From positions 14,960 to 78,959 of the IMG/VR virus record IMGVR_UViG_3300006204_000007: a stretch of 64,000 nt of DNA, one strand, 5' to 3'. The stretch comes from a virus. Taxonomy: Duplodnaviria; Caudoviricetes. Made by a program: the position numbers and the translations under genes. This document shows positions 9,401 through 63,185 of this stretch, one piece after another (the stretch's first letter is position 1; every line of letters begins with the position of its first letter). The notes below the pieces were generated by a model. That model did no database searches. It was not told the DNA's origin and was given only the letters and a program-made list of their open reading frames with translations.

Positions 9401-9641
9401 CTTTTATCTTTGATGCTTCTTTTCTAATTCCGGCCCCGACACTTCTAAATTTGCTCCCAACACTTGAAATTTTGCTGTTAAGTCCAGACAACGCGCCTTG
9501 TACGCCGGATTTAAGCTGTCCAAAACCACCTTTCATTTCGGACACTCCTTTTTTTATTCCTTCTGTATTAATTTTTGTATTTATCCGAATTGACCCGTCA
9601 TACTGTGCCATAAAACCACCCGTAAAATAAAAAAGTGCCAC
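6414..9641 (-). CDS. Tape measure protein (probable start ATG 9611, MAQYDGSIRI)
   Basis: >1000 aa helical protein with Trp-spaced repeats; same N-terminus as 57685..61188. Confidence 0.92.
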   Translation of the reverse strand: MALFYFTGGFMAQYDGSIRINTKINTEGIKKGVSEMKGGFGQLKSGVQGALSGLNSKISSVGSKFRSVGAGIRKEASKIKGSVNGVSDSFRNLGATIASVFAVRKIAGFASSMTELGSDLEEVQNVVDVTFTTMSDKINEFAINAAKSAGLSETMAKRYAGTFGAMAKSFGFAEDAAFGMSTTLTQLAGDVASFYNISQDEAYTKLKSVFTGETETLKDLGVVMTENALNSYAMAKGIGKTVSKMTELEKVALRYQFVTEKLSGASGDFIRTQDSWANQTRILKLQIESLKATIGQGLINVLNPLLKMLNTLLEKLKVVANAFKSFTESFFGKSSSGGSGAGNKYVDTAEGITGSLEDVSDAAQDAEKSLEGYLSPLDEINKYSAGKDDELLSDLENIDFWNLGNLDMEVNVKPNIDESGLSDKFRQMAEKVKGILTSLFNPLKEAWSREGKFVMDSWKYALDEVWKLIKDIGRDFLTVWQQEGTIRIFENILHIIGDIGLVVGNLAGKFREAWNENDTGLHILENIRDIIGAIVENIRHAADATVEWSSKIDFSPLLTKFEEWTASLVPVIDTLSGIMTDFYEKVLLPIGQWVLEKGLPDLLQVFIDFNEMVDWESLRANFAELWEHLEPFAETVGEGLIIFIGRLSEVLAGFLNSQALKDFLAMIEDWMDNVSPQEVADGFEKIAIAIIALKGAGAALTFISTGFSALSGVANMLKGALSLLHPVITILSGAISGLGGVISFLLSPIGLVVAAVAALAAGFVYGYQTSEEFRQKVEELKEKFIEFWQENLKPMLEEWGQKFKELWEEHLKPCIDKLMELLKALWEDVLIPIAGWIVDTILPVLLPIIDEVFNTTIDLVGWVIDVIGGLFDVIKDTVGLVADLLRGDWSGAWEHAKNIVETVFDGITGTIERAVGWITDQIDKIIDRFRNMKEKVGDFFSGGGGDSGQTYSARSYSMRSMSAPSVHPAIAKLANIEIPGYATGQVIPTSMKRHLAWLGDNPRETEVVSPLSTIEQAVINAMAKVGAVGNGGSNGGNTYSVKAIANGGVIFDMIIEEGKTRMMASGRNPFDLGTT

Positions 9642-13070: not shown

Positions 13071-13197
13071 TATCTTTCCTCACAATCTCACACTTTTGCT
13101 TAAGAATCAAATATCCGTCCTTATTCTTTTTTACGATTGCAGTATACCCTTTATCCGCAATCTCCCTGGCAACCTTGCCTATTTCTTTGTCTGTCAT
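13045..13197 (-). CDS. Small conserved protein after tail chaperone (50 aa)
   Basis: MTDKEIGKVAREIA... with ATGA overlap; paralog at 61896..62033. Confidence 0.7.
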   Translation of the reverse strand: MTDKEIGKVAREIADKGYTAIVKKNKDGYLILKQKCEIVRKDNVSTNQKL

Positions 13198-13787
13198 CCC
13201 AACACCTCATTAAGCAATGTCTTATATGCGTCCTCCTGCTCCTGCTCTTCCTTTGTCAGTGGCTTTTTCATCAACACCAGTTCTTTGTTGTGGGATAAGA
13301 ACTCTTTCTCATGCTTTTCAAGCTTCTTACCCTTATTCAGCTTATTCCGTATCCCTACAATAAAAGAGAATGTGCCTTCTCCCACTTCATTGAAATATCC
13401 AAGAAACGTCCACCAGTGCAGGTAATCCAGTTCTCTCGTTTCTTTCCCGGCAACCTTATTGACCGCGGAAAAAATCATCTGTTCATCCTGCGTCCAGTTA
13501 TATGTCGGCTGTTCAAGTACCTGTTTTTCTGGTTGTCCAGCGGAGATGAACCATGATATTTGTTTTATTGCTTCTTCCAAGTCAAAGCCATTTTGCGCCG
13601 CCTGCAGCACATCATCAGCGCAAGAAAAGTCCTCAAATAGAAGATAGATAGCAACAATCCACTTTTCCTCCTGGGCCAGTTCTGGGTCTTGGAACGCTTC
13701 AAATACTTGGAGGACATTGCGGTAGTCGGTTCTGATAGGATATTCTTCACCGCCCACCGTCAACGTCTCCGACAATGCGCCTATCAT
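13194..13787 (-). CDS. Tail assembly chaperone (A118 Gp15-like)
   Basis: IRTDYR...DEQMIFSA...LHWWTFL motif; paralog at 62030..62623. Confidence 0.85.
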   Translation of the reverse strand: MIGALSETLTVGGEEYPIRTDYRNVLQVFEAFQDPELAQEEKWIVAIYLLFEDFSCADDVLQAAQNGFDLEEAIKQISWFISAGQPEKQVLEQPTYNWTQDEQMIFSAVNKVAGKETRELDYLHWWTFLGYFNEVGEGTFSFIVGIRNKLNKGKKLEKHEKEFLSHNKELVLMKKPLTKEEQEQEDAYKTLLNEVLG

Positions 13788-14296
13788 TTTTTGCCTTTCC
13801 TTTTATGATCCTGTGGCTGGTACTTTGCCATGCGCTGTTTGCTTGCCAGTTTTTCTAACTTAATCTTGTGTTCAGATAATCTCTCAATGACCGGGATTAA
13901 CTTATCCCAAAAGTCAAGGAAACACTCTAAATCCGGCTGGAAGTTGGGAATCACTGCATACACATCACCAAAGAATTTCCGAGTTGTTCCCTCGCCGAAA
14001 ACTCCATCCATAATAGCAGTTGCCTTTTCAGAGAAATACTTCCTTTCCTCAATTTCTTTTTTATAGTCCATATCGCCGGATTCAGACTCTTTCTTTTCCA
14101 TTTCCTCTGCTAATGCTGTCAGTTCATCACCAGCCGCCCGGAATCTGTCAAAGATAGAAATATCATTGCCGGAAATCACGATGTAATCATCACCGCCGCC
14201 GACGTATACTTTTGTAAGCGTCAACCGGTTGTCAATCCTGATTTCTTCTGTTTTGGTATTTTCATTTTCAATTTTCATTTCTTCAATTTCTGCCAT
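13784..14296 (-). CDS. Tail assembly chaperone (first of the pair)
   Basis: Between tail tube and Gp15-like genes; paralog at 62620..63132. Confidence 0.75.
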   Translation of the reverse strand: MAEIEEMKIENENTKTEEIRIDNRLTLTKVYVGGGDDYIVISGNDISIFDRFRAAGDELTALAEEMEKKESESGDMDYKKEIEERKYFSEKATAIMDGVFGEGTTRKFFGDVYAVIPNFQPDLECFLDFWDKLIPVIERLSEHKIKLEKLASKQRMAKYQPQDHKRKGKK

Positions 14297-14351
14297 ATTA
14301 TTGTCCTTTCAGAAATGGAGCATATCCCAAACGAATACACCCCATTATTTT

Positions 14352-14912
14352 TTAACTAAGATTGCTCTTGCTGCTTGTCTTGGCAAGTTTCTGTTCGCTT
14401 AATGCTGCCGGAGTTTCCCCACCAGTCGCAGGAGTGAATGTCGGTACTCTTTCTGTTACAGATACAGTTCCCTCTACCCTGCCGCCGTTTGGACTTACAT
14501 TAAATGGCAAGCCAAATCCAGCAAGTTCTCCGCCGGTGCTCTGGGGAACAACGACAACATTCTCCATCCAGCCTTTTCCGGTCAGCGTCTTTGTGTCAGA
14601 ATCCCTTACCTCCTCGTCCAGAACCGCTTCTAACAGATAAGCCGCAGTCGAATCCTCATCAAATTTCCTGTTCATTGCCATGCCGAGGATTTTCTCATAA
14701 ATGGCATCTTCCGTCCGGGCATAGTATGTATCTACTGCCAGTTCTGGCTGGTAGCCGCTGTGGTTTACAATGGTTTCCCCCAGTACGTTTTTGGTTGTCT
14801 CCACGTCCGGGTTCAACTCGTACGTTAAGGAATCCGTGTCTTTTCCAATCAGCGTCCATTCTTTCTTGTCAAATGAAAGCCATATGGCGTATGCCGCTCT
14901 TGGTAATTTCAT
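14352..14912 (-). CDS. Major tail (tube) protein
   Basis: Position and size; paralog at 63186..63773. Confidence 0.8.
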   Translation of the reverse strand: MKLPRAAYAIWLSFDKKEWTLIGKDTDSLTYELNPDVETTKNVLGETIVNHSGYQPELAVDTYYARTEDAIYEKILGMAMNRKFDEDSTAAYLLEAVLDEEVRDSDTKTLTGKGWMENVVVVPQSTGGELAGFGLPFNVSPNGGRVEGTVSVTERVPTFTPATGGETPAALSEQKLAKTSSKSNLS

Positions 14913-18164: not shown

Positions 18165-19148
18165 TTATGACAGCTTCGTACTCTTTGCCCTTGTCGTGCC
18201 GCCAGATTCCTCGCCGGTTTCGCTTGCACTGGATGCACCCGGTTTCTTGCTGTAGAAAATCAGGTCAGGCATAACAACCTTACAGCCGTAGTGGAAGAAC
18301 ATGCCGATTGCATACGCATTGGAAAGCTCAATCTGCTTTGCTTGGTATTCGTCTGCCATAACCGGCTCCGCAATCGCCCCGGTACACATAGCGATAATCT
18401 CAACTCCCTCCGGCTGATGAACATTGGAGTAAATCCATGCACCGTGATACCGCCCGAACTCCGCAACGTCCGTCTGAACATTTGCGTTGCCTTTTGTGTC
18501 GATGTAGTCCCGCATTTCCTCGTAGGCTTCCGGGGACAGGACAACGTGAATATCCTCTTTCTCGATGCCGTCCACAAACTCATTTTTTGCAGTGTGCAGC
18601 TTCATCACTACCGCCGTTACACGGTCTTTAATGGTATCGCCGGACACCGTAACCTCTGTACCGCCGTCAACCGTCCCAACAGTGCCGTCACTCTCTTTGC
18701 GCTTGCCGACAGCCACAAGGAAAAAGTTTTCATCCAGTTCCCGAACCATGGCACGGGTAATAGCTGTTTTTCTTTCAGATAACAGCCCAGGAATGCCGCC
18801 CAGCCGGATATCCTTTTCCTCGTATTCCTCCATGATTTCCTTGTCGATGTCGATGTCTACGGCAACCTCAAATCCCCTGCCGGGCTTTCCTTTTCTTGCC
18901 GCCCTTGCCGTGCCGTATTCTTCTGATTTTGCAGAAGCAAATCTTTTCGCCACAAGCGTTCCTGCCTGCGGGTCGCCGGATAATCTCTGATTTTTGAAAA
19001 GGCTTGAAATCGTCCGCCTGCCGACATTCTCAATAATGCCCTTATATTCCTCTGCAAGTTTCAGTTTTCCGTCTTCGGTTCCTGCCAAATCGGAAAGTTT
19101 TACAAGATTTAATGAATCAATAGCCATAATAAAATCCTTTCTACCCAT
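18165..19148 (-). CDS. Major capsid protein
   Basis: Follows the scaffold gene; ~320 aa; flexible C-terminal tail similar to that of the tail tube protein. Confidence 0.85.
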   Translation of the reverse strand: MGRKDFIMAIDSLNLVKLSDLAGTEDGKLKLAEEYKGIIENVGRRTISSLFKNQRLSGDPQAGTLVAKRFASAKSEEYGTARAARKGKPGRGFEVAVDIDIDKEIMEEYEEKDIRLGGIPGLLSERKTAITRAMVRELDENFFLVAVGKRKESDGTVGTVDGGTEVTVSGDTIKDRVTAVVMKLHTAKNEFVDGIEKEDIHVVLSPEAYEEMRDYIDTKGNANVQTDVAEFGRYHGAWIYSNVHQPEGVEIIAMCTGAIAEPVMADEYQAKQIELSNAYAIGMFFHYGCKVVMPDLIFYSKKPGASSASETGEESGGTTRAKSTKLS

Positions 19149-19204: not shown

Positions 19205-19813
19205 TTAGAAAATCACAGGAGCCGGACTGGTATCTTTTGCCGGGGTCTGCTTCGGCTCGGACTTGTCCGTAAACTTCGGCGCACTTCCGGCGGCTTTCTC
19301 TTTGGCTTCGGCCTCTGCCTTTTCAGCTTCGGTCTGGTAGAAATGGTCTTTTTCATTCTCCTTTGCCAGATAGTCCGACAGCCCCATAAATGCGCCGTCC
19401 TTCCACTTCAAGCCGTCATCGCCCATGATTTCACGCATGAGAGAATCCCTGACACGTCCTGACTCGATTTTCAGCTTGTCAAACTCGCCTTTCAGATAAT
19501 CCCGCTGGTCACGCTCCAAAATCTGCTTCGTAGCCATGTCCTGCGCTTCTTTTGCAGCCTGTTTATACTTCTGGATTTCCTCCTCCTGTTTCTCCGGGTC
19601 GATGTCCTTAAACTTCTCCAGGGTTTCATTTGCCGTGTCAAGCTGCCCTTTGTAAGTGTCCCGGTCTGCTTCTGCCGCTTCCAGCTTCTTGACCTGCTTG
19701 TTGTAATCAGCAATAGGCTTATAGTTCTCGGCTACGGCATCATTGACAGCCTTTTTCTGCTCCTCCGTTACTTCCAGTCCTGCGTCTTTCAAAATCTGCT
19801 CAATACTTTTCAT
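19205..19813 (-). CDS. Capsid scaffolding protein (Gp20-like)
   Basis: Charged coiled coil, GLSDYL..ENEKD, Pro-rich C-terminus, upstream of capsid gene. Confidence 0.8.
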   Translation of the reverse strand: MKSIEQILKDAGLEVTEEQKKAVNDAVAENYKPIADYNKQVKKLEAAEADRDTYKGQLDTANETLEKFKDIDPEKQEEEIQKYKQAAKEAQDMATKQILERDQRDYLKGEFDKLKIESGRVRDSLMREIMGDDGLKWKDGAFMGLSDYLAKENEKDHFYQTEAEKAEAEAKEKAAGSAPKFTDKSEPKQTPAKDTSPAPVIF

Positions 19814-22474: not shown

Positions 22475-22490
22475 GCGGCATCACTGCCGC
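22475..22490 (-). terminator. Intrinsic terminator after the GIY-YIG gene
   Basis: GCGGCA/TGCCGC stem with downstream T-tract on the minus strand. Confidence 0.65.
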
Positions 22491-23071
22491 CCCTTGTCGT
22501 GGGAGATTTTTTCTTCGATTGCTTGAACAATATATGCGTTTAGGCTCATATTGGAGTTATCGGCGTATTGTTGTATTTCTGCATAAAGAGAAGCGTCAAT
22601 ATGTATATTTCTTATGATTTTTTCTTTATATATCGGTTTCTCTCGTTTTTGGATAATTTCTGAAATATATTTTGCCATCACGCTATCTTTTTTGCATTCT
22701 CTAAGCATAGACAATAATTCATTTTTACTTGAACATGTTGTTTTTGCTTTGTTATATCCCACATTTAAACTATCATATTTTTGGATAAAGAATGATTCTT
22801 TCTCAAACAAATCAAATTGATTGCACCCATACGGCAACATTTCTAAAATTTCTACAGAAAATGTATCTCCATTCTGAATATCGTTCTTCATGGTTAAAAT
22901 AGGTGATAGGCTATGCTGTTTTATTCTCTTTTTCACATTTTGAGAAGAACCAATATACATCTTTTGGCTTCGATTGTTTATAATGGCGTATACTCCTATC
23001 CCCTCATAATCTGGTATATCAATTACAAATTCAGTATTGTTTACAATTTTCTCCATAAAATATCCTTTCAA
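22481..23071 (-). CDS. GIY-YIG nuclease-domain protein with C-terminal ribbon-helix-helix
   Basis: GVYAIIN...MYIGSS...RIKQH; C-terminal NIHIDASLYAEIQQYA...SLNAYIVQAIEEK. Confidence 0.75.
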   Translation of the reverse strand: MKGYFMEKIVNNTEFVIDIPDYEGIGVYAIINNRSQKMYIGSSQNVKKRIKQHSLSPILTMKNDIQNGDTFSVEILEMLPYGCNQFDLFEKESFFIQKYDSLNVGYNKAKTTCSSKNELLSMLRECKKDSVMAKYISEIIQKREKPIYKEKIIRNIHIDASLYAEIQQYADNSNMSLNAYIVQAIEEKISHDKGRQ

Positions 23072-24241: not shown

Positions 24242-25920
24242 CAATGTCATTTAGATAAGGACGATGCAAAGAACAGTGTATGTAGAAATATGTACCCTGT
24301 TCTTTTTTTGTATAATTTCATAAATCACTTGACAGGATAAACCAAATGTGTGGCCGCTCTGACTATCTAAAAAGAAAGATAGTCAGAGCGGCCCTTGTAA
24401 TTAAGAACGATCTTGATTGCAAGGAGGATTACACAATGAATCATTCTACAGAGGTGAAGCAAAAACTATTATCCATTATTACAGAGATGGATTCTTACCG
24501 TTGGTTGTTTACAAAGAATCCGGAAACGGATTTTTCACGTAAAAAGAAATGGTCATTTGAAGAGATAATGAAGTTTATGCTTACTATGGAAGGCAAAACA
24601 TTAAGAGATGAACTTTTGGAATATTTTGATTTTGACAGTTCCGCGCCATCGAATTCAGCATTTAACCAGCGAAGGGCACAGATATTGCCAGAAGCATTTG
24701 AATTCTTATTTCAAGAATTCACTAAATCTTTTCATGATAATGCTGCATATAAAGGGTTTAGATTAATTGCCTGTGATGGTTCGGATTTATGCATTGCCAA
24801 CAATCCCAAAGATGAAACGACCTATTTTCAACCGCTTCCTGACAGCAAAGGCTTTAACCAACTACATTTAAACGCTTTTTATGATTTATGCAGCAGAAGA
24901 TACACAGATGCAATTATCCAACCTGCCCGATTGAAAAATGAAAATAGTGCTATGTGTGAATTGATTGACAGATACAGTGGTCAAACTGCTATTTTTATTG
25001 CAGACAGAGGTTATGAGAACTATAATATATTTGCTCATGCGGAACACAAAGGAATGTATTACCTAATACGCGTCAAAGATGTAACAAGTAATGGAATCGC
25101 TTCTGGGCTGACAATGCTGCCGGAGAGTGATGAATTTGACGAATGGGTTAATCTTACTCTCACAAAAAAGCAGACAAATGAAGTAAAAGCAAATCCCCAA
25201 AAATACAGAATTATTATGAAAAAAACACCTTTTGATTATCTTGACCTGCATTTTAATAAGTTTTACGAAATGAAAATGAGGGTGGTGCGTTTTCCAATCT
25301 CACAAGACTCTTATGAATGTATTATTACAAATCTACCACAAGAAAAATTTAGTTCTGATGAAATCAAACAGTTATATGCGAAACGCTGGGGAATAGAAAC
25401 CTCTTTTCGCGAGTTAAAATATGCATTAGGATTAACGCGGTTTCATGCAAAGAAAACAGAATATATTATGCAGGAAATATGGTCAAGAATGACTCTGTAT
25501 AATTTCTGTGAGATTATAGCGGGTAATGTTGTTGTCAAACAGAAAGCCAGCTGCAAACATATATATCAGCTGAATTATACCCGTGCGATGCGGATTTGCT
25601 GTCATTTTCTATCAATAAAAGAAGAAAAAGCTCCACCCGATGTAGAGTATCTAATCGGACATGAGCTTCTTCCTGTACGTTCTGGGAGAACAGACCCTCG
25701 CAAAGTCAAACCCCAGTCCGCGATAAGCTTTCTATATAGAGCAGCCTAATCAAATATTAGTATATACCATTTTTAAGACAGATGAAAGCATCTGTCTGTT
25801 TGTCGTACAAATTTATTACGTTGAATGCTTTTAAATATAGAAAAACAGCGAATAAACAAAATGTTTACTCGCTGTAAAAAGAATCCTAACTGCAATGTTG
25901 TCCTTATCTAAATGACATTG
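24242..25920 (+). mobile_element. IS4-family insertion sequence
   Basis: Perfect 21-bp terminal inverted repeats CAATGTCATTTAGATAAGGAC (24242..24262, 25900..25920); 10-bp target duplication GGATAACACC (24232..24241, 25921..25930). Confidence 0.95.
24436..25749 (+). CDS. IS4-family DDE transposase (open frame begins at 24346)
   Basis: IACDGSD, FIADRGY and YAKRWGIETSFRELK (YREK) motifs. Confidence 0.95.
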   Translation: MNHSTEVKQKLLSIITEMDSYRWLFTKNPETDFSRKKKWSFEEIMKFMLTMEGKTLRDELLEYFDFDSSAPSNSAFNQRRAQILPEAFEFLFQEFTKSFHDNAAYKGFRLIACDGSDLCIANNPKDETTYFQPLPDSKGFNQLHLNAFYDLCSRRYTDAIIQPARLKNENSAMCELIDRYSGQTAIFIADRGYENYNIFAHAEHKGMYYLIRVKDVTSNGIASGLTMLPESDEFDEWVNLTLTKKQTNEVKANPQKYRIIMKKTPFDYLDLHFNKFYEMKMRVVRFPISQDSYECIITNLPQEKFSSDEIKQLYAKRWGIETSFRELKYALGLTRFHAKKTEYIMQEIWSRMTLYNFCEIIAGNVVVKQKASCKHIYQLNYTRAMRICCHFLSIKEEKAPPDVEYLIGHELLPVRSGRTDPRKVKPQSAISFLYRAA

Positions 25921-25976: not shown

Positions 25977-26525
25977 TTAATACATATCTGCCATTTGCCG
26001 GATGTGGCGCATGACAATTTCCCTTTCTTCCTTACAATCAGCATCGCGTGTGAGTTGCTTAATCATTCCATGTACCCCAGACATAAAGTCCTCTAATGCG
26101 TTTAACATCCGTTCTTTACTTCCATCGTCCCGGTTGTTGGAGTATTCCATCTTCCGGCTCCTGTATTCATCCATGTCGGTATCGTCCCCGGACAGACGGG
26201 AATAGTTCGGGCGGTGTACATATCTGCCAGTGGTTGCGCTTCTGCCCCGTCGATAGGAATTGCCATTATCATAATCGTTGGAGTAGTTCCCCTCCCGGCT
26301 GTAATCGCCGTTACGGGAATACCCGCCACGCTCCCGGCTGTAATCCTCCATATCCCGGCTATATCCGTCCATGGAATAACCGCCGCCGTCCTGCATCATC
26401 TCGATTTTGTCCACGCCCTTCATGATTTCCACCAGTTTATAGGCGTTGTCCAGATTGGAAGAAGTCAAGCCTTTTTCCTCAATCGCTTTCAGCTCTTTTT
26501 CTGCGTTTTCTCTCAATTTATGCAT
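25977..26525 (-). CDS. Hypothetical protein with YSR-type repeats
   Basis: GYSMDGYSRDMEDYSRERGGYSRNGDYSREGNYS low-complexity core between helical ends. Confidence 0.8.
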   Translation of the reverse strand: MHKLRENAEKELKAIEEKGLTSSNLDNAYKLVEIMKGVDKIEMMQDGGGYSMDGYSRDMEDYSRERGGYSRNGDYSREGNYSNDYDNGNSYRRGRSATTGRYVHRPNYSRLSGDDTDMDEYRSRKMEYSNNRDDGSKERMLNALEDFMSGVHGMIKQLTRDADCKEEREIVMRHIRQMADMY

Positions 26526-26528
26526 AAC

Positions 26529-26954
26529 TTAACCCTCCCTGTTAATCGTGATGTTTGCGTTCTGCATATCAATCGCCTGTGTGGAGGTGTTTTTGATTGA
26601 TACCTGTATGCAGCAGCCCTTCGGAATCCATACATCTGTAGCCATAGCCACATTGAAGTAATCGCCAACTGCTGCCGGAGTTACGATTGCATTTGTGGAT
26701 AAGTCTGCCTCTCCGTTGATTGCGATTGCAACGGATATCGGGCCAGCCGTTCCGCCAGTCGCAACAGCGATATTGCCAGAAAAGATTACCCTGTATTTCG
26801 CCCTGCAATTCTGCGTACAGCCACGCACTGTAAACTGTCCGCTGCCTGTTCTATGTAAGACAAGACCTTTATTGCAGCATGATGTTTCCCCAGAAAACAA
26901 AGCGTTCTGATTTTCCTGTATTGTCTGCACAGGAACATTTACAAATTCTGCCAT
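26529..26954 (-). CDS. Beta-sandwich protein resembling the BclA C-terminal/C1q-TNF-like domain
   Basis: All-beta pattern G.Y.V.FSGNIA...IAINGE...; CC pairs; GGAGG RBS before ATG 26954. Confidence 0.6.
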   Translation of the reverse strand: MAEFVNVPVQTIQENQNALFSGETSCCNKGLVLHRTGSGQFTVRGCTQNCRAKYRVIFSGNIAVATGGTAGPISVAIAINGEADLSTNAIVTPAAVGDYFNVAMATDVWIPKGCCIQVSIKNTSTQAIDMQNANITINREG

Positions 26955-27011
26955 GTTATTTTCCTCCAAATAAAAAACTACCAACTGTTTATAGCTGATA
27001 GTTTCTGGATT

Positions 27012-27470
27012 TCAAGCAGATAATGCTTTATTTTTCCACGACTTTCTATATTTGTAAATTCTTTCAGAAGTAATTGGATTGTAAGATACCAAACATTTAC
27101 AATCACCTGTCAAGTAACATTCAATAGGCTCTTTTTCCACGCCATAAACATTCACTTTTCCATTGTCTGTAATGCTTGAATATTCGGTATCAAGTTGGAA
27201 TTTTATGTGCTTACATTCAAACTCCAATACATTCTGGTCTGCGTCATAACCATATGTTTTTCGTAGAGTGATGGTCTTTATACATCGGTATGATTTCCCA
27301 AATGCGTGAATCATGCTTATGTTTGAATACTCTGTTTCTTCATCGTCTGGAACTTTGGGAGGTTCAGGGTCTATATAACTCATTATCTTCATTCCTGCCA
27401 CATAAAGAACTCCGAACAAAAACATTCCTATCAAATGCCCAAATATCATCATATCGCCCTCCAAACTCAA
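27012..27470 (-). CDS. AT-rich moron, N-terminally membrane-anchored protein
   Basis: Hydrophobic N-terminus; own promoter 27487..27519 and terminator ~26972..27004. Confidence 0.7.
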   Translation of the reverse strand: MSLEGDMMIFGHLIGMFLFGVLYVAGMKIMSYIDPEPPKVPDDEETEYSNISMIHAFGKSYRCIKTITLRKTYGYDADQNVLEFECKHIKFQLDTEYSSITDNGKVNVYGVEKEPIECYLTGDCKCLVSYNPITSERIYKYRKSWKNKALSA

Positions 27471-27486
27471 TAATTTATTTGTATAA

Positions 27487-27519
27487 ATTATATCATAATC
27501 AAACGAAAGATATGTACCA
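27487..27519 (-). promoter_or_regulatory. TGGTACAT-N19-TATAAT promoter
   Basis: Box 27512..27519, -10 at 27487..27492. Confidence 0.75.
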
Positions 27520-27679
27520 TTATATGAATGAAACCCACAAACTATCAGCCATATTCAGTTGTCAATGTCCAGTTAATCGCAAAAGGACAGAATCAATGTT
27601 CTGCCCTCCCACGTTGTAATAACGGCTCATGCCGAACATTTCCGATGTTTCACGGAAAAGATACATTCTTTTTCAGTTT

Positions 27680-28477
27680 TTAGCAGTTGCCGCACTGACC
27701 GCAGTTACCGCCCCAACCGCCGCCATTGAACTGCCCACAGCAATTTGTCGGGAAAGTTACCTGCGCCGGTGGCTGTACGACATATGCCGGAATCGGACAG
27801 TCGTTGCCGGTTCTGCGGATAATCTGCGCCGTGTTAGCGTCCATAGCTGCCATAAGGGTAGCGTTCTGATTCGCCTGGGATGCTGCAAGTTTAAGCGTCT
27901 GATTCTCTGCCTGTAAGTCAGAAATCTTCTCCTGGCACAGATAGTCAAGGATTGCCCTTGTTCCTGCGTTCTGACTGTCGATAATGTCACGTGTGTTTAC
28001 ATTCATGGTATTCTGCAAATCGCATGTATTCTTTGCCATGTTGTAATTTACACCGTCAATCGCACGCTGCGTCTGGCAGCAGCAGTCGGAAAGCTGGCTG
28101 GAAAGATTGCAGAACCCACGTTCAACACCATTGAATCCCTGCATCATTCCCATCTGCGTGCTGTTGAATCCACTGTTTACTGCGTTTGTGAGGGCGTAAG
28201 TGCTGTCGCAAATGCCCTGCTGAATGGCAGTAATACCGCTCTGCAAGTTGTTGAGGGCGAATCCCTCGTTGATGTCTGCACGAGTCAAAGCTCCCTGAAG
28301 TCCTGCTGCATTGCCGCTAAAACCGCCACCAAAGCCGCCAAAACCTCCCCAACCGAACATGCCAAAGATTAAGAAAAGGATAATCCATGCTCCCCAATCT
28401 CCGCCAAATCCGTTGTTTCCATTGTTATATCCGGCAGGCTCTACCGGCATAGTCATAGGTACTCCTGATTCCATCAT
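27680..28477 (-). CDS. Gly-rich hydrophobic leader plus Asn/Gln-rich coiled-coil protein with Cys clusters
   Basis: GFGGDWGAWIILFLIFGMFGWGGFGG; DCCCQTQ; C-terminal NCCG...NCGQCGNC. Confidence 0.85.
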   Translation of the reverse strand: MMESGVPMTMPVEPAGYNNGNNGFGGDWGAWIILFLIFGMFGWGGFGGFGGGFSGNAAGLQGALTRADINEGFALNNLQSGITAIQQGICDSTYALTNAVNSGFNSTQMGMMQGFNGVERGFCNLSSQLSDCCCQTQRAIDGVNYNMAKNTCDLQNTMNVNTRDIIDSQNAGTRAILDYLCQEKISDLQAENQTLKLAASQANQNATLMAAMDANTAQIIRRTGNDCPIPAYVVQPPAQVTFPTNCCGQFNGGGWGGNCGQCGNC

Positions 28478-28526
28478 GTTTTTACTCCTTGAAATTTATT
28501 TACAAACTTTGCGCAAAGTTATGTAT

Positions 28527-28739
28527 CTACTTAAAAAATCCTTTAAACATCCCCTGCATTTGCTGGGCTTGCTGCTGCACTTGGTTAAGCTGCTGCTGGC
28601 TTACCTTCCCGGATTGAAGCAGCTTATTTATTTCCTCCTGCGGGTTTTTGCCTTTCATTTCCTGCATAAAGCGTTGGAACTGCTGAAACATGTTTCCGCT
28701 ACCCTGACCGCCCATAGCACTGAAAACCGGACTATTCAT
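28527..28739 (-). CDS. 70-aa Gln/Met-rich protein
   Basis: ATG 28739 overlaps the upstream stop; QQQLNQVQQQAQQMQ. Confidence 0.75.
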   Translation of the reverse strand: MNSPVFSAMGGQGSGNMFQQFQRFMQEMKGKNPQEEINKLLQSGKVSQQQLNQVQQQAQQMQGMFKGFFK

Positions 28740-29280
28740 TAGCATTTCCTCCCTTATTTCTTGGCTTGCTTGTTCCTGCCTCTGTTCTCTTGGTATCATC
28801 AGAAGTTGAAACACTGGCAGGAAAGTTATTCAGCTTGTCTAAAATCTCCATGTATTTACCCTGTAAATCGTCGTATTCCGCTCTTGTGACATATTTACCG
28901 TCTAAATTTATTTGAGCCGGATTTGGGGCTTGTGGCACGTTCTGCGGTGTGTTTTGTGTGCGCTCTGTATAATCAAATACCCTAAGTGGCAACGGAATCC
29001 CAGAAGCGTCTGCCGATTTGATGTAAAAAACGGGTGATTCGCTATCCATTAGCAAAACCGATTGCCCGTTTGCAATCATCCAACTTTTTGCTGCCGCCTC
29101 TCCTTGTACATAAGCCCAGGACTGTGTAGACTGCGGTTGCTGATTGATCTGTGGTGCCTGAGGCGGATATTGCTGTGATTGGTACTGCTGCGCCTGTAAC
29201 TGCGCCAGCCTGTCCATAGGCGGCTGCACCTGCTGTTGGTATGGATTAAAATAATTTGGATTCATAAAAGGTTGTGCCAT
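28732..29280 (-). CDS. Gln/Pro-rich protein with a small folded central domain
   Basis: GGAGG RBS before ATG 29280; YVQGEAAAKSW...LLMDSESPVFYIKS core. Confidence 0.8.
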   Translation of the reverse strand: MAQPFMNPNYFNPYQQQVQPPMDRLAQLQAQQYQSQQYPPQAPQINQQPQSTQSWAYVQGEAAAKSWMIANGQSVLLMDSESPVFYIKSADASGIPLPLRVFDYTERTQNTPQNVPQAPNPAQINLDGKYVTRAEYDDLQGKYMEILDKLNNFPASVSTSDDTKRTEAGTSKPRNKGGNANE

Positions 29281-29381
29281 CTGAACGCCCTCCGATTTCT
29301 TTCTATGGGTAAATTTTCGCATAAAAATAGAGGATTTCCCATACTCGGAAAACCCTCGTTTTTGTTGCGTTTTTTATTCAA

Positions 29382-29654
29382 TTATTCTCCGTATTTATCG
29401 CGGTATTTCTTGAAAAATGCTTCTTTAAGTGGCAATACCTTTATAATCTTTTCGGTGACGGATTCAGAAAGCTTGTTGATTTTAGTCATGCAATATCCCA
29501 TTTTCCCGGCGATTTCTTCAAAGCTCATTCCGTCGCCTTCATTCCTTAAATCAAAGAACATGGATTCGTCAGGTGTGAAATTACACTCATTTCTAAAAAG
29601 TTCTAATTCCCATTTAACAAATCCTTCGACTTCTTTTTCTTTCTTCTTCCTCAT
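29382..29654 (-). CDS. LuxR/sigma-region-4-like HTH protein
   Basis: NFTPDE..FFDLR...MSFEEIAGKMGYC...INKLS pattern. Confidence 0.6.
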   Translation of the reverse strand: MRKKKEKEVEGFVKWELELFRNECNFTPDESMFFDLRNEGDGMSFEEIAGKMGYCMTKINKLSESVTEKIIKVLPLKEAFFKKYRDKYGE

Positions 29655-29677: not shown

Positions 29678-29971
29678 TTAGTTCCCCTGGTTCTGCCCTT
29701 CTTCTTGCTTCTTATCTTCTGTCCCATTATGCACATCACCTTCAATCTCTTTGTTGTAGTAATTATATCCCTCGCCGTCCTGTGATACATAGTCATAGGA
29801 CTGGAACACATACAACCAAGCCATATTTGTTCCAACAAGCAGTACGATAAGCAGAATAATCACAATCCACATTGTTTTAAGTTGCTTAACCAGTGCGCCT
29901 AATACATCTGTTGCACTGTTTTCTTTTTCCTTCACATTATCCCTATTTTCCAACTTCTTCCCCTCCTGCAT
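29678..29971 (-). CDS. Single-pass membrane protein
   Basis: WIVIILLIVLLVGTNMAWLYVF segment. Confidence 0.7.
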   Translation of the reverse strand: MQEGKKLENRDNVKEKENSATDVLGALVKQLKTMWIVIILLIVLLVGTNMAWLYVFQSYDYVSQDGEGYNYYNKEIEGDVHNGTEDKKQEEGQNQGN

Positions 29972-30212
29972 TTTCCCTTGAAATAATCAGATTTTTGTCT
30001 ATCAAAAGCGCAAACGGACACACAATCCCGATTAGTACAGTTCCAAACAAATCAATCAATTCTTTGTTTTCCATTCCCAAACCTCCAATATGTATTAGCG
30101 GACTCATCCCTTATGCAACTACTATATCCGCTATGTGGTCGCCCTCATTATTGCTCGACCCTCTCCCGCTCTGTATTTCCCTCATTATAGCAATTTTATG
30201 GAGGGGTTGCAA

Positions 30213-30428
30213 TCAGTCTTTCTGATTTTTAAGCACATCTATCGCCATATCTATATATTCTATAGTTTCCTGCTCATTTTCTTTCCTTACATTAATTTGT
30301 CCTGTTTTTCTTATTGCGCATTTAAACGCACCTAATACAACGATAGCTGTATCTATGCTTTTATCTCCTATCATCATACTCTTTTCCTCTCCCAAAAATA
30401 AATAACACTCTTGCCGCCGCTGTCCCAT
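30213..30428 (-). CDS. Small hypothetical protein
   Basis: Operon-consistent ORF; start probably at an internal Met. Confidence 0.5.
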   Translation of the reverse strand: MGQRRQECYLFLGEEKSMMIGDKSIDTAIVVLGAFKCAIRKTGQINVRKENEQETIEYIDMAIDVLKNQKD

Positions 30429-30781
30429 GTGTCCCAGTATTTTCCGTCTACCACCGTCACCACATGACCGTCAAGTCCAAGGACGTATGTACCATGTGGA
30501 AAGTTGCAGCAGAATTTGTAAACGTCCATAGGGTAATCCGGCTCATAGCGCACATAGCCATTGTCTGCCAGATATTCACCCCATACCTTATTGGCAGACA
30601 GAACATCCTTTTGACGGTATGCAATTTGTACAAGGTCGTCAAAGACTTCGTTCCATGTGCGCCCCGTAGCCTTGCAGCACGCACGAATGGCGCAATCGCC
30701 GACTCGCTTACCGGGTATGGGGTTGGGATTATATTTAATCCATGCGTTCATCATCATACCCCCATATATATCCATCTCCAA
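30374..30781 (-). CDS. Conserved phage protein with possible Cys-His-Asp catalytic residues
   Basis: NPNP...GDCAIRA...GHVVTVVDGKYWDTWDSG. Confidence 0.7.
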   Translation of the reverse strand: MEMDIYGGMMMNAWIKYNPNPIPGKRVGDCAIRACCKATGRTWNEVFDDLVQIAYRQKDVLSANKVWGEYLADNGYVRYEPDYPMDVYKFCCNFPHGTYVLGLDGHVVTVVDGKYWDTWDSGGKSVIYFWERKRV

Positions 30782-31271
30782 TTCCCGCTCTGCACCATAA
30801 CGGAATTATGTGTTTTGGATATTTTAATAAATCCGATGCAATACTTGCAGAACGGTATTTTGCAATCAGAACACCATCTAATGTTTTCTGATAAATTGGT
30901 TTTGATTTGGTATCAATAGCTCTCTTTTTTGCTGTACCGTAATTGTTATTATACTGATATGTACACCATTCAAGATTGGAAACAATGTTATTAAGTTTGT
31001 TTTCATCTTTATGATTTACGCATGGTAAGTTTTCGGGATTAGGAATAAAGGTTTCAGCAACAAGCCTATGAACTTGAAACTTTCTTCTGGTTCTGTCCTT
31101 TAAGTATAATGTCACAGTATGATATCCAGAATTTATCATAGTAGGCTTTAAATAAAACTCTTTCGGATTACCAAATTTTGAGCTTTCCCGAAAACTCTTT
31201 ACCCTTCCAAGATTGCTGACCTGATACAATCCCTCATATCCTTTTACATCTTTCCAAATTTCCTCGCTCAT
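30735..31271 (-). CDS. NUMOD4-HNH homing endonuclease
   Basis: EIWKDVKGYEGLYQVSNLGRVKS; VHRLVA...VNHKDENKLNN..SNLEWCT. Confidence 0.92.
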   Translation of the reverse strand: MSEEIWKDVKGYEGLYQVSNLGRVKSFRESSKFGNPKEFYLKPTMINSGYHTVTLYLKDRTRRKFQVHRLVAETFIPNPENLPCVNHKDENKLNNIVSNLEWCTYQYNNNYGTAKKRAIDTKSKPIYQKTLDGVLIAKYRSASIASDLLKYPKHIIPLWCRAGIGDGYIWGYDDERMD

Positions 31272-31326: not shown

Positions 31327-31560
31327 TTAAGCATACTCTCCATCGTTCCGCTTATTCCATGCCCTACGTGCCCCGTTCTTGGTGGTATGCCAGTTTCCCA
31401 TTTTTCCGTATGGATTTTCCCAACAGCACATATATTTATGCTCGTCTCCTACTGTGTGCATATGGGGATAATTCCCACAATAGCGACATTTTTCAAGCCT
31501 TACTTTCACTTTTATATCTCCTTGCGCCCTGATTCGCTTGCTTTGTCTGCTCCCTGTCAA
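31327..31560 (-). CDS. Small Cys-containing hypothetical protein (Lar-like end)
   Basis: CRYCG...ARRAWNKR. Confidence 0.45.
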   Translation of the reverse strand: MTGSRQSKRIRAQGDIKVKVRLEKCRYCGNYPHMHTVGDEHKYMCCWENPYGKMGNWHTTKNGARRAWNKRNDGEYA

Positions 31561-32752
31561 AATCAGCCACCTTTATGCGGTCATACTGCGGCTGTAAATC
31601 GTTCTGTTTGCAGAAATCGTTGTATGCCTTGTTTTTCTGTGTCAGTTGGTAGGCCATGCGGTCATAATCCCTCTGCAATATCTCCTTAACGTCCGTTTCT
31701 GCCACGCCTGCGATTTCCTGCTCTTTGACAATCAGCTTTCTTTTCCATGCCCGCAGGCTCCGCTCCATAGCACGCTGTTTCTGTTGGAGTTCATACCGCT
31801 TTTTGTTTTCCTCGCTGTCTATTTTCAGATTGCCTTTTTCGTCCACATAGGGATTGCGTAAGTGTGGATCCCAAGGCTTGTGTGAATGCCTGCAATTATA
31901 TCCATGAAGCGACAGCGGATTTGTGACAGTTCCTTGTCCTGTTTTCGGGTCTATCCTATATCCAGTAGATTCAAGCATATTAGGATATCCTGGTTCACTT
32001 CCAGTAATCTTATATGCTTTACCCTGCCACGATGAATGGTCTGCTATTGGCGGCTGTCCTTTTTGCGCCACTCTTGCCCCTAAATGCGCCGATACAAGGA
32101 CATATTCAATTCCACCCTCAACTATGTATTGATTTGTCACTTGCGCCGCCGTCTGATTCATTGATGTGACAACGCACAATCTAACCGCCGCTTCCAATGT
32201 GCGCCTTGTGCCGCTCGGATAGTCCACATAGATTCCCCGTCCGGCGTATCTATCCAAAATATCACACACCGCCGCAGAATAGCTTTGTACGCCTGCCGCC
32301 ACTCGCAGATCAGCTTCATCAAGCATATTGATAAGGTCAATCTGCGACTGCTTCATGGTTGTGCGTGTGAGGTTTGTCAGTTCTTCCAAACTCTTTTTAA
32401 ATTCAGCGTCCATAACACGGATTACAGCGGCATTTTCAAGCGGATGGGATAATTCTATGCTTAACTGCCCTAAAGTCGTTCTATCGTCCTCCCATGAGGT
32501 CAGAACAGCGTCTTGCAGGAGTGAACGCAACTCTTTCTGTGTCAGTCCCGTTAAGGTCTGCAATTTCTGTTCAATCGCCGCTTGACTCTCGCCCATCTGC
32601 TTTAACTTCCAGATAAGGCGGTCGGCGGTTGCGGTCATTTCCCCGGCGGAGAGTAGGCGGCGGGTGATGTCTTTGAGGATAAAGTCTTCTAATTGGCGGT
32701 ATAATTCAAGAAGACGGTCTTCTTTGTTGGTGAAGTAGTCTGGTGTGAGCAT
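31493..32752 (-). CDS. Minor capsid/head morphogenesis protein (Phage_min_cap2-like)
   Basis: MLTPDY...VSAHLGAR...H.SWQGK...NCRHS motifs. Confidence 0.88.
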   Translation of the reverse strand: MLTPDYFTNKEDRLLELYRQLEDFILKDITRRLLSAGEMTATADRLIWKLKQMGESQAAIEQKLQTLTGLTQKELRSLLQDAVLTSWEDDRTTLGQLSIELSHPLENAAVIRVMDAEFKKSLEELTNLTRTTMKQSQIDLINMLDEADLRVAAGVQSYSAAVCDILDRYAGRGIYVDYPSGTRRTLEAAVRLCVVTSMNQTAAQVTNQYIVEGGIEYVLVSAHLGARVAQKGQPPIADHSSWQGKAYKITGSEPGYPNMLESTGYRIDPKTGQGTVTNPLSLHGYNCRHSHKPWDPHLRNPYVDEKGNLKIDSEENKKRYELQQKQRAMERSLRAWKRKLIVKEQEIAGVAETDVKEILQRDYDRMAYQLTQKNKAYNDFCKQNDLQPQYDRIKVADFDREQTKQANQGARRYKSESKA

Positions 32753-34338: not shown

Positions 34339-35805
34339 TTATTCCTCCCCAAACAATCCATCTTTCGGCTCATTCTCGCTCTTTGCTTCTGCCACAATAT
34401 CCCGCGCCGCTTCTTCCGTGAACCCTTCATTATGCACCAGATAATACCACTTAGGATAAAAGCCCTTATCTGTCAGCAACAACGCCCTTGACCTATCTTC
34501 CTCCGCATTTCTCGTGAGGTCTGCAAAGTCCGCATATATTTCATAGTTCCCAAACTCACTAGGAGCCGATTCCCCGTTGATAACAGACATAGCGTCCATT
34601 ATATAGGCTATGTCATGAATCGCCCCTATGCGCCCATCTCCGTTGCTGTCAGGGCATGATAGAATGTCCCGGTAATCTCCCACGGTGTTAATTGTACGCC
34701 GCTCCGTTGCTTCTACCTGGGTAGCAGTAGCAACGGAAATAGTCTGACCGTTAAAGACGAAATATCCAGGGTCAAACCCGGTCTTGTAAGAAATGATAGA
34801 AAGCAGGAAATTTATTCCGTCCGTCCGGCTTGCAACTTGCAGAGTTGGCTGCCACTGCTCAAATGACTTATCAGTCATATCGTCCAGTCCGGTCTTGAGT
34901 ACCATTCTCGGAAGTTCAATCCCGTTTGCTTCTGCATACTGTATCGCAGATTGACCGATTATCATTTTCGGCTCGGAATCCTCTGTTTCAACTCCCAGCG
35001 TGGACATTGCAATATCCAGCCAGCGCAGTTCCTCTATGCACTCCGAAAAGCACGATACCCCCAATGGGCTGTCCGGGTCTATGGTGTTGCTGTATGGGTT
35101 CTTTATGTACACGAATAAAGGTTTTTCAAGGTTCTCCGCTGTAAACTCCGGCACAATATCCGCCCACTTTGTATTTTTTAGGTCTGTCGGCCGGCCGATT
35201 TCGTCCTGGTTATCAGAAACAAACGCTTTATTGGAAACTCTGTACACTTTGACAGACACACTCTCCCCGGCTTCGTCCCGGCGTTCTCCGTCCTCGAACC
35301 TGTGCCATTCTGCCCGTGTGTAGAATTTCTTTTCTTTCTGGTAGTATGAGAAAAATATCGCCCCGGTCACTTCCCCATTACTGTCAAATTCAGTCACAAG
35401 AAATCTGTCTGGCGGTATGTAGTCCATACCTTTCCCGTTCCACTTCGCCATAGATCCACCCAACATAACCACATCTTGCATAATCCGCTGGGCATTCTTC
35501 AGGAAATAATCATCAATGCATTTCTGGATTCTTTTTGCGGTTTCCCCAGTTCCATACTTTGACTGCACCTTGATATCAATATTCTGTGTAATCAGCTTAG
35601 CCAGTTCCCGTGCTACGGTGTTGGAAAAGCGTATTGTTCGGGTATCGCCCTTTACCCACGGTGGATTTCCGCTCTCCAACTGCCCCCACAGCTTGATAGC
35701 AGCGTCCATTTCTGGCGACAGGTACGTTTCCACACCGAAAGCCTTTTCAGCGTCCGTTTTAAATAACATTCTTATCTTCTCCTTAAACCATGCGATTAAA
35801 CCCAT
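34339..35805 (-). CDS. Portal protein (A118-like)
   Basis: 488 aa after terminase; SPLGVS and GFDPGYF...ATATQV motifs. Confidence 0.9.
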   Translation of the reverse strand: MGLIAWFKEKIRMLFKTDAEKAFGVETYLSPEMDAAIKLWGQLESGNPPWVKGDTRTIRFSNTVARELAKLITQNIDIKVQSKYGTGETAKRIQKCIDDYFLKNAQRIMQDVVMLGGSMAKWNGKGMDYIPPDRFLVTEFDSNGEVTGAIFFSYYQKEKKFYTRAEWHRFEDGERRDEAGESVSVKVYRVSNKAFVSDNQDEIGRPTDLKNTKWADIVPEFTAENLEKPLFVYIKNPYSNTIDPDSPLGVSCFSECIEELRWLDIAMSTLGVETEDSEPKMIIGQSAIQYAEANGIELPRMVLKTGLDDMTDKSFEQWQPTLQVASRTDGINFLLSIISYKTGFDPGYFVFNGQTISVATATQVEATERRTINTVGDYRDILSCPDSNGDGRIGAIHDIAYIMDAMSVINGESAPSEFGNYEIYADFADLTRNAEEDRSRALLLTDKGFYPKWYYLVHNEGFTEEAARDIVAEAKSENEPKDGLFGEE

Positions 35806-61895: not shown

Positions 61896-62033
61896 CTACC
61901 GCTCCTTATCTGACTTTACAATTTTAAGTTTTTCTTCCAAAATCACAATTCCGTCTTTATTCTTTTTGACTTTTGCAGTGTTGCCCTGCCCCGCAATCTC
62001 CCGGGCAGTCTTTCCAATCTCTTTATCCGTCAT
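61896..62033 (-). CDS. Small conserved protein after tail chaperone (45 aa)
   Basis: Paralog of 13045..13197. Confidence 0.7.
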   Translation of the reverse strand: MTDKEIGKTAREIAGQGNTAKVKKNKDGIVILEEKLKIVKSDKER

Positions 62034-62623
62034 CCTAACACCTCGTCCAACAATGCTTTATATTCGTCCTCCTGTTCCTGTTCTTCTTTGGTCTTTGGCT
62101 TTTTCATCAGCACCAGTTCTTTGTTATGAGAGAGGAACTCTTTCTCATGCTTTTCCAGCTTCTTACCCTTATTCAGCTTATTTCTAATCCCTACAATAAA
62201 GGAGAATGTACCTTCTCCCACTTCGTTAAAATATCCAAGAAACGTCCACCAGTGCAGGTAATCCAGTTCTCTCGTTTCTCTCCCGGCAACCTTATTGACC
62301 GCAGAAAAAATCATTTGTTCGTCTTGCGTCCAGCTATATGTTGGCTGTTCAAGCACCTGTTTTTCCGGCTGCCCGGCAGAAATGAACCATGATATTTGTT
62401 TCATTGCTTCTTCCAAGTCAAAGCCATTCTGCCCCGCCTGCAGCACATCATCATCACAGGAAAAATTATCAAACAGCAGATAGATTGCCACAATCCATTT
62501 TTCCTCTTGGGTCAGCTCTGGGTCTTGAAACGCTTCAAAGACTTGAAGGACATTGCGGTAGTCGGTTCGGATAGGGTAATCCACGCCGCTAACCGTCAAC
62601 ACCTCCGGCAATGCGCCTATCAT
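62030..62623 (-). CDS. Tail assembly chaperone (Gp15-like)
   Basis: Near-identical to 13194..13787. Confidence 0.85.
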   Translation of the reverse strand: MIGALPEVLTVSGVDYPIRTDYRNVLQVFEAFQDPELTQEEKWIVAIYLLFDNFSCDDDVLQAGQNGFDLEEAMKQISWFISAGQPEKQVLEQPTYSWTQDEQMIFSAVNKVAGRETRELDYLHWWTFLGYFNEVGEGTFSFIVGIRNKLNKGKKLEKHEKEFLSHNKELVLMKKPKTKEEQEQEDEYKALLDEVLG

Positions 62624-63132: not shown

Positions 63133-63185
63133 ATTATTGTCCTTTCAAAAACGGGGCATATCCAAAACGAATACACCCCATTATT

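Follow-up and report, generated by a model that had tools for sequence, protein, structure and literature searches.

Does a cassette of genes for Gln-, Gly-, Cys- and Tyr-rich proteins that sits among the head genes of a prophage build a layer on the spore of the lysogen, or does it serve the phage in some other way? This question is raised by the stretch of 64,000 nucleotides analysed here (the window), which spans positions 14,960 to 78,959 of the 78,959-bp IMG/VR virus record IMGVR_UViG_3300006204_000007 and carries the cassette at 25977-29654. An earlier reading of the sequence (the original prediction) had proposed a module that assembles a protective or adhesive layer on the spore or around virions. 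Comparison with other viral genomes shows that the cassette is a real, very widespread and mobile accessory module of gut phages. At its core is a protein of 265 amino acids (aa), G265; the other genes are named here g90, QP196, Q95, g152, B151 and YSR182 (Table 1). Our preferred reading, which we put forward tentatively, is that the module encodes a portable membrane-anchored stalk-and-knob complex acting on the host envelope late in infection.

An alignment-based search for related loci gave no conserved stretch. G265 was therefore used as a single-protein bait, which yielded 80 IMG/VR viral contigs and 54 genome loci, and the neighbouring open reading frames (ORFs) were clustered de novo. 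Gene order was strongly conserved in the 80 IMG/VR loci, so that the cassette recurs as a unit elsewhere, as the original prediction had supposed. The recurring order is a small helix-turn-helix (HTH) gene, a Q/P-rich gene (QP196 or the alternative family f2), a small Gln/Met-rich gene (Q95 or f3), G265, a beta protein of about 141 aa (B151 or the Cys-rich family f5), an Arg/Gly/Tyr-rich (RGY) protein and often a minimal zincin. Partner counts were taken from 78 loci, many of which are near-copies of each other, so that the counts are not independent. The Q/P-rich gene was found two genes upstream of G265 in 68/78 loci, the small Gln-rich gene directly upstream in 66/78, the beta protein downstream in 60/78, and the HTH gene (family f4) directly upstream of the Q/P-rich gene in 37/78. 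The YSR182 family, which supplies the downstream RGY protein, is the commonest single-family partner of G265 (53/78).

The module was found at three kinds of insertion site: between minor head and scaffold genes (the window and Dulem virus 35), after the major capsid protein/connector genes and an XhlA-like gene, which directly precedes the module in 16 loci, and after the lysis genes in Butyrivibrio phage Ceridwen, C. perfringens phage XP41-N3 and bajarodcaudo virus 5. G265 forms at least 1725 clusters at 50% identity and the 141-aa protein 2113 clusters at 90% identity. With thousands more for the partners, and with no Pfam, NCBIfam or PADLOC match at threshold, they constitute a large blind spot in the annotation of the gut virome; a literature search found no paper describing the module.

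The host range of G265 was examined by tblastn against 50,697 phage records. Most family members reside in prophages of Lachnospiraceae, Oscillospiraceae and other Clostridia; in CAJTGD01, from a Lachnospiraceae isolate, the G265 is 96% identical to that of the window. Relatives were detected in uncultured gut phages, in Ceridwen and XP41-N3, in many Crassvirales of two families, in phage csAssE-Sib, in Bacteroides phage C3_41T2LP, a plaque isolate on B. uniformis, and in two viruses whose records give Methanomassiliicoccales as host. No Bacillus, C. difficile, Lactococcus, Streptococcus or Staphylococcus phage among these records yielded a relative. The proteins of Bacteroidota phages retain the Gly/Trp hydrophobic segment, the CCC motif, the coiled coil and a C-G-C tail, and most of them have S-Q-Q-x-Q-T and P-x-P-A-Y (cr4_1 lacks the latter). 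Those of the archaeal viruses share the hydrophobic segment and the coiled coil, contain two CCC motifs and are without the Cys-rich tail. Both groups carry an N-terminal extension of 45-80 aa with Lys/Arg before the hydrophobic segment and with a conserved Met-rich K-G-x-D-P motif. In a maximum-likelihood tree, in which the host label of metagenomic representatives is an assumption, the Clostridial-type proteins were separated from those of Bacteroidota phages and archaeal viruses with support 100/99. The GC content of the loci is 33-38% in Bacteroidota phages and 59% in archaeal viruses. This, together with the split of the tree by host group, indicates that G265 is a long-term resident of these genomes and not a contamination.

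In Bacteroidota phages G265 is likewise followed by a set of partners. These are a beta-rich protein of 128-180 aa that often contains Cys, a protein of 164-188 aa with beta and coiled-coil parts, which accompanies G265 in 15 of its 16 records, and a short Arg/Gly/Tyr/Asp-rich protein, present in four of the five loci read; in cr1_1 its place is taken by an unrelated protein. Some of the latter proteins carry a G-R-Y-V-R-R-type motif like the one in the window, and a zincin is often near. Judged by position, size and composition, these partners are analogous to the Clostridial ones. The cross-domain range and the parallel partner sets are new here. In cr4_1 the G265 homologue (locus L006, 5653-6630) and its neighbours hold in-frame TAG codons and read cleanly with TAG as Gln, which is consistent with stop-codon recoding in that Crassvirales lineage. 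In both Methanomassiliicoccales viruses the G265 gene (L141, 3152-4186; L145, 2134-3996) adjoins, in addition to a phrog_5302 tail protein gene, genes for large secreted repeat proteins that are anchored in the membrane at their C-terminus; a further neighbour in vir215 is a reverse transcriptase gene that may belong to a diversity-generating retroelement.

The presence of the G265 core in Bacteroides phages and methanogen viruses implies that the cassette is not a spore-coat module. The proposed spore link had been said to fall if the genes were common in phages of non-sporulating hosts, and the Crassvirales, C3_41T2LP and the two archaeal viruses show that they are. A lysogenic-conversion module that is expressed in the mother cell and adds a coat- or exosporium-like layer to the spore is therefore very improbable, even if the knob described below has exosporium proteins as its best fold matches, the products are Cys-rich and Tyr-rich and lack signal peptides, and SpoIVA was found in nine of ten host genomes carrying G265. 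This last figure was obtained without a control for the high base rate of SpoIVA among gut Clostridia, and SpoIVA was absent from the Bacteroidales metagenome-assembled genome (MAG) G005. Analogous partner sets accompany G265 in Bacteroidota phages and archaeal viruses, the phage records contain it in no Bacillus or C. difficile phage, a Pfam BclA_C or coat-family match was not obtained, and the promoter-like site ahead of the unit is of the sigma-A type. Butyrivibrio is described as a non-spore-forming genus. The full Clostridial-type cassette is present in its phage Ceridwen, which was seen in lytic growth only (PMC7372960). A 1.9-Mb MAG labelled 'uncultured Bacteroides sp.' (L134/G008) contained both a G265 homologue and a full-length SpoIVA; the bin was probably mislabelled or is mixed.

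The features that had been announced for the 265-aa protein were all found. G265 (14% Gly, 11% Asn, 13 Cys) has a Gly/Trp/Phe-rich hydrophobic segment and two long polar helices, in accordance with the predicted Gly-aromatic leader and Asn/Gln-rich coiled coil, and its Cys clusters consist of CCC at residues 132-134 and a tail with CC, C, C, C. In an alignment of 60 family sequences CCC is invariant, and several Gly around the hydrophobic segment, S-Q-x-x-Q, the P-x-x-x-Y within P-x-P-A-Y and one tail Cys are nearly so. The AlphaFold2 (AF2) model (60 homologues, pLDDT 64) places a hydrophobic helix at residues 29-40 and long helices at 76-113 and 118-223, between disordered Gly-rich and Cys-rich ends. 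As the model is one of long helices, a fold search with it is uninformative, and Foldseek returned noise only (E-values of at least 8). The stalk, as read from the sequence, is rich in N, Q, T, S and A, whereas cytoplasmic coiled coils are typically rich in E and K. For the Cys-rich tail no match to the Pfam model Baculo_PEP_C was obtained at E 0.1.

For B151 the predicted BclA C-terminal domain (CTD)/C1q-like fold was corroborated by AF2, Foldseek and VIA, which agree. The AF2 model (34 homologues) had a pLDDT of 92.4 and a pTM of 0.85, and is a compact ten-strand jelly roll over the whole domain, as expected for a predicted member of the BclA_C/C1q-TNF fold. Foldseek matched it with 9h38, 8d02, 7r1m and 1wck at E-values of 2.5e-6 to 1.5e-5, TM-scores of 0.62-0.76 and probability 1.00. 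The best VIA match was the CTD of F-BclA (9h38; Z 16.1, rmsd 2.1, 123 residues aligned), followed by BclA (1wck; Z 14.8), EDA (Z 14.1) and ExsFA/BxpB (Z 13.2; Foldseek TM-score 0.75). C1q and tumour necrosis factor (TNF) family members came next, and then the knobs of phage fibres (Sf6, A-1(L), A4, TM4 gp23 and PRD1 P5) with Z 8.4-12.3. By sequence B151 matched no Pfam family at E 0.1 save for a chance FOXO match, BclA_C included, phmmer found no match among PDB sequences, and hhalign did not detect homology with the Cys-rich beta family f5. B151 thus shares its jelly roll over its whole length with the BclA CTD, with ExsFA/BxpB of the Bacillus cereus group and with C1q/TNF, and, as in ExsFA/BxpB, the domain stands alone, measures about 140-150 aa and has no collagen stalk. 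It differs in being phage-encoded, also in Ceridwen, and in having only 9-15% identity to BclA and ExsFA. BclA proper has an N-terminal collagen-like stalk and an exosporium-targeting leader, whereas the 141 aa of B151 are all jelly roll. To our knowledge the CC pairs of B151 are not a feature of BclA. A search for longer forms of the knob yielded one 263-aa fusion and no fusion of the knob with G265 or with collagen, which is weak evidence that collagen-like forms are absent. The 263-aa protein (L149-L151, 6001-6792) joins a 125-aa N-terminal domain of no known family to a BclA-like knob, and its gene follows an Ig-domain gene in the tail block. In these three loci, which come from different samples, the contigs all stop within about 140 nt past the gene, which hints at a downstream repeat or hypervariable region.

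The Gln-, Cys- and Tyr-rich composition of the products was borne out by computed residue percentages and Cys and Tyr counts. QP196 (14% Gln, 10% Pro) has a Q/P/Y-rich N-terminus, a small beta-rich middle and a C-terminal helix, and hhalign shows its homology with the alternative family f2 (probability 97.9%). Q95, with 24% Gln, shares a KG-x-(D/N)-P motif with the N-terminal extension of the Bacteroidota and archaeal G265s; the hhalign match is weak (E 0.002, probability 13%), and that Q95 may be the fission/fusion counterpart of this extension is a lead only. In YSR182 terminal helices enclose an Arg/Gly/Tyr/Ser/Asp-rich disordered middle, and the predicted repeat is present as eight YS[RNM] units, with 14 Tyr in the protein. 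Apart from G265, the cassette products that had been described have no hydrophobic segment at their N-terminus (read by eye, not with a predictor), which fits assembly inside the cell. The LuxR-like label given to g90 lacks support. The protein itself had no match in Pfam or NCBIfam, and its homologue from locus L053 gave a sub-threshold Sigma70_r4 match (E 0.0016) and matched the regulator families phrog_36 (E 1.2e-5) and phrog_1190. Taken together, the cassette proteins gave nothing significant in Pfam, NCBIfam, PADLOC or PDB sequences, five of the products matched PHROG families of unknown function at E-values of 8e-31 to 4e-98, and for G265 and QP196 the ESM Atlas returned nothing but unnamed viral clusters.

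How such proteins might work together has to be put conditionally, as membrane insertion, topology, oligomeric state, the question of who binds whom, timing and function are all things that we infer. G265 would insert in the cytoplasmic membrane of the host via its short Gly/Trp-rich hydrophobic segment, which Q95 would probably shield before insertion, and would form a parallel, probably trimeric, polar coiled-coil stalk of about 20 nm. The CCC ring and the Cys-rich tip would then cross-link, by disulfide or metal, to a small beta-sandwich partner, which in the window would be a BclA/C1q-like trimer of B151, and the Q/P-rich and Arg/Gly/Tyr-rich low-complexity partners would supply a cohesive matrix. 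The sigma-region-4-like HTH gene, the terminator behind it and the closing terminator may represent the module's own expression control, and the envelope of the infected cell may be the target of the complex as infection ends. Its most likely role would be that of a release accessory, with a block of superinfection as the second choice.

The portability of the module across different envelopes, together with its invariant hydrophobic anchor, points to the cytoplasmic membrane as the shared structure; no docking site other than a lipid membrane is shared by Clostridia, Bacteroidota and Methanomassiliicoccales. The charged N-terminal extensions, the N/Q/T/S-rich stalk and the Cys-rich tip favour an N-in, C-out orientation of G265. 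The module adjoins holin or endolysin genes in cr1_1 (where it lies between both), cr4_1, cr116_1, Dulem virus 40 and bajarodcaudo virus 5, and a lysin gene in Ceridwen. This adjacency, and that to XhlA-like genes, suggests a late role at the envelope, perhaps in release. As the module crosses viruses of Gram-positive, Gram-negative and archaeal hosts, it must rely on something common to these hosts or on their shared habitat, and identifying this factor would reveal a new step in gut phage infection, release or transmission. With Ceridwen and C3_41T2LP two carriers are culturable, so that the question is directly testable.

Several observations weigh against a membrane-anchored complex of this kind. 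The hydrophobic core of G265 spans only 12-14 residues, and in the Clostridial forms it is flanked by almost no charges, which leaves the topology unsettled. As the knob and the low-complexity partners have no N-terminal hydrophobic segment, they would reach an external stalk only after the holin fires; otherwise either the stalk is internal or assembly takes place on or around virions. A place beside lysis genes is also where morons are classically found, and synteny among the Crassvirales makes these cases non-independent. The type of G265 tail did not co-vary cleanly with the type of knob, and hhalign did not detect homology between the Bacteroidota-phage partners and the Clostridial ones. 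Furthermore, a canonical holin (phrog_263) and an endolysin are encoded elsewhere in the prophage, where they sit with the integrase past the tail genes and outside the window, and the monoderm and archaeal hosts have no outer membrane. A regex scan for a lipobox ORF within 2.5 kb on the same strand found none in six Bacteroidota-phage loci.

Two candidates related to lysis were rejected. A primary lysis system was ruled out by the prophage's own holin and endolysin. Like the lambda i-spanin Rz, G265 has an N-terminal membrane segment, two long helices, Cys and a Pro-rich end; its AF2 helices would fit the spanin pattern of a membrane segment followed by a coiled coil, and the holin/endolysin adjacency of the lambda spanin is paralleled in several Bacteroidota phages. 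It differs from a spanin in its constant association with beta-sandwich and low-complexity partners and in the absence of sequence similarity. The lack of a lipoprotein partner in the six loci, and of an outer membrane in most hosts, rules it out as a two-component spanin.

Proteins that meet in the cytoplasm could also become part of the particle, and an accessory fibre, decoration or occlusion-like coat of the virion is unlikely, though less so than the other alternatives. G265 and the knob would then form a fibre, or the Cys-cross-linked proteins a matrix with the low-complexity products, for adhesion to gut material or for survival outside the host, for instance by thiol oxidation on exposure to air. 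The products other than G265, having no hydrophobic segment at their start, can assemble in the cytoplasm like virion parts, and a polar coiled-coil stalk with a TNF-like knob is typical of phage fibres (the Sf6 tail-needle knob, PRD1 P5, the short fibre of cyanophage A-1(L)/A4, TM4 gp23) and is found likewise in Chlamydia Pgp3. Compared with these TNF-headed fibres, the stalk and knob of the cassette are separate polypeptides, its stalk carries Cys clusters and, at the N-terminus, a hydrophobic anchor of membrane type, and it is not known to attach to a virion. The frequent position among head genes, the fused knob form in a tail-gene block and the range over gut anaerobe viruses of three host groups, which fits a function directed at the environment better than one directed at a single host, speak for a virion component as well. 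However, tailed virions hold no lipid for a Gly/Trp hydrophobic anchor, mobility among siphoviruses, crAss-like podoviruses and archaeal viruses would demand a universal docking site on the capsid, and structural genes do not usually come with an HTH gene, a promoter and terminators of their own. A broader version, to which we give a rather low probability, combines envelope and particle: a cross-domain gut viral machine of a kind not described before, in which a portable, membrane-seeded, Cys-cross-linked stalk-and-knob lattice with BclA-like heads would serve tailed viruses of Clostridia, Bacteroidota and methanogenic archaea alike, either by remodelling the envelope of the dying cell or by giving the progeny an occlusion-like coat, for release and for survival between hosts. 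If so, the likeness to the exosporium would reflect a common building principle or a shared origin.

The moron-like insertion sites and the module's own sigma-A-like promoter and terminators would suit superinfection exclusion or another conflict at the membrane, in which the complex would block DNA entry or adsorption in the manner of single-gene morons such as HK97 gp15. With such morons, and with the PBSX XhlA-type lysis accessory, the cassette shares insertion in structural or lysis blocks, its own promoter and terminator and a single-pass membrane product, and an XhlA-like gene is its direct neighbour in the 16 loci mentioned above; it differs from them in being multi-gene with a regulator, in being conserved across host phyla and in having no homology to either. 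Diversifying conflict would also account for the swapped families at each partner position (QP196/f2, Q95/f3 and B151/f5), homing endonucleases occur beside or inside the cassette, and the module is present in temperate and in virulent phages. We nonetheless regard exclusion as improbable. Five to seven genes are far more than known exclusion systems have, G265 is strongly conserved rather than diversifying, the ten cassette proteins searched gave no PADLOC match to known anti-phage defence systems, and the terminator after the HTH gene argues against simple constitutive expression in the lysogen. Improbable too, and slightly more so, is a membrane-tethered cytoplasmic scaffold or condensate, an N-out, C-in stalk with prion-like Q/P-rich and RGG/Tyr-rich proteins serving as a platform for assembly or replication on the cytoplasmic side of the membrane. 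From their sequences all partners are cytoplasmic, and the Clostridial G265s have no Lys/Arg, and often have Asp, just before the hydrophobic segment. Q/P/Y-rich and R/G/Y-rich compositions are typical of phase-separating proteins, and by analogy the products of the cassette might behave as such. Against this, N-in is favoured by the long and charged extensions at the N-terminus of the Bacteroidota and archaeal G265s, the composition of the stalk and the Cys-rich tip look extracytoplasmic, and TNF-like knobs serve surface or secreted proteins as binding heads. What weight these readings leave belongs to something else.

Table 1. Positions of the genes and signals of the window; coordinates count from its first letter.
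Feature	Coordinates	Strand	Remarks
Portal	34339-35805	-	
Minor head protein	31493-32752	-	
Homing endonuclease gene near cassette, HNH side	30735-31271		
P135, putative papain-like Cys peptidase, phrog_3754	30374-30751	-	PHROG E 3.8e-35
Sigma-A-like promoter	30212-30184	-	TTGCAA, 17 nt, TG-n-TATAAT; ahead of small transmembrane genes and HTH gene
Small hydrophobic transmembrane ORF	29943-30074	-	About 43 aa from Met behind GGAGG
g97, 97-aa single-transmembrane protein	29678-29971	-	
g90, small HTH-like protein, family f4	29382-29654	-	Sigma-70 region 4-like
Intrinsic-terminator hairpin between HTH and Q/P-rich genes	29330-29357	-	12-bp stem and T run
QP196, phrog_21718	28732-29322 (ORF)	-	Likely start M15 at 29280 behind GGAGG; PHROG E 3e-39
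Q95, 70-aa Gln/Met/Phe-rich helical protein, phrog_22984	28527-28739	-	PHROG E 8e-31
G265, 265 aa, phrog_16490	27680-28477	-	PHROG E 4e-98
Promoter-like site, extended -10	27548-27519	-	Ahead of g152
g152, orphan AT-rich gene	27012-27470	-	N-terminal hydrophobic segment; seventh gene, between G265 and knob gene
B151, 141-aa stand-alone jelly roll, phrog_20016	26529-26954	-	Cys as CC, C, C, CC
YSR182, phrog_28802	25977-26525	-	PHROG E 2.7e-84
Strong closing intrinsic terminator	25845-25875	-	14-bp stem and T run
IS-type DDE transposase, 467 aa	24346-25749	+	Directly past closing terminator, inside late operon
Homing endonuclease gene near cassette, GIY-YIG side	22481-23071		
Scaffold	19205-19813	-	
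327-aa ORF, capsid position	18165-19148	-	No family match
Paired, similarly sized tail genes	13194-14912 / 62030-63773		
Paired tape-measure-sized ORFs	6414-9641 / 57685-61188		

With regard to the layout of the locus, all the genes that had been described are present and co-oriented; their number is seven and not six, the additional one being g152. This gene (GC 0.35) matched no family in Pfam, PHROGs, NCBIfam or PADLOC and had no homologue in the other loci (a singleton among 87), and is an orphan insertion in the cassette. The cassette does lie between the minor head and scaffold genes, as stated originally, though an insertion sequence (IS) transposase, a GIY-YIG endonuclease gene and a tRNA-Ile separate it from the latter. 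All late genes of the first prophage are on the minus strand, in the order portal, DNA methyltransferase, minor head protein, HNH endonuclease, cassette, IS transposase (this one on the other strand), GIY-YIG endonuclease, tRNA-Ile, scaffold and the 327-aa ORF. Judging from gene sizes and a few family matches, the 79-kb record looks like two related siphovirus-type prophages head to tail, or like a chimeric assembly.

The transcription unit appears to begin further upstream than 29654, with the sigma-A-like promoter followed by two small transmembrane ORFs. This promoter is a pattern match from a consensus scan (10/12 matches plus the TG extension). An ORF family (f80) occupies the position of the first small ORF in five loci, and the window ORF is a candidate member of it; g97 has homologues (tblastn) at the same position in 13 loci. 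Further upstream, P135 had no PDB or Pfam match. Its residues C20, H96 and D107 are invariant in 11 homologues, and its family occurs three to eight genes upstream of G265 in 20 loci. The hairpin and T run between the HTH and Q/P-rich genes were found at the same place in eight loci of the QP196 type, the window among them, at -12.7 to -19.6 kcal/mol; their stems differ in sequence. After the last cassette gene, a hairpin with T run of -10 kcal/mol or lower was present in 14 of 47 distinct loci as against 4 of 47 random windows.

Some further genes travel with the module. HNH, I-HmuI-like and GIY-YIG homing endonuclease genes were repeatedly observed beside or inside it (between G265 and f5 in L044-L053; L142, 5270-5890) and could promote its spread from one co-infecting phage to another. 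In some Clostridial loci the cassette comes with a DUF7841 protein (L065, 11671-12135). In cr4_1 (L006, 4997-5623) the gene directly upstream of G265 encodes DUF7841 with an Arg/Gly/Tyr-rich tail fused to it; its annotation in the record is 'sigma factor/ubiquitin-like'.

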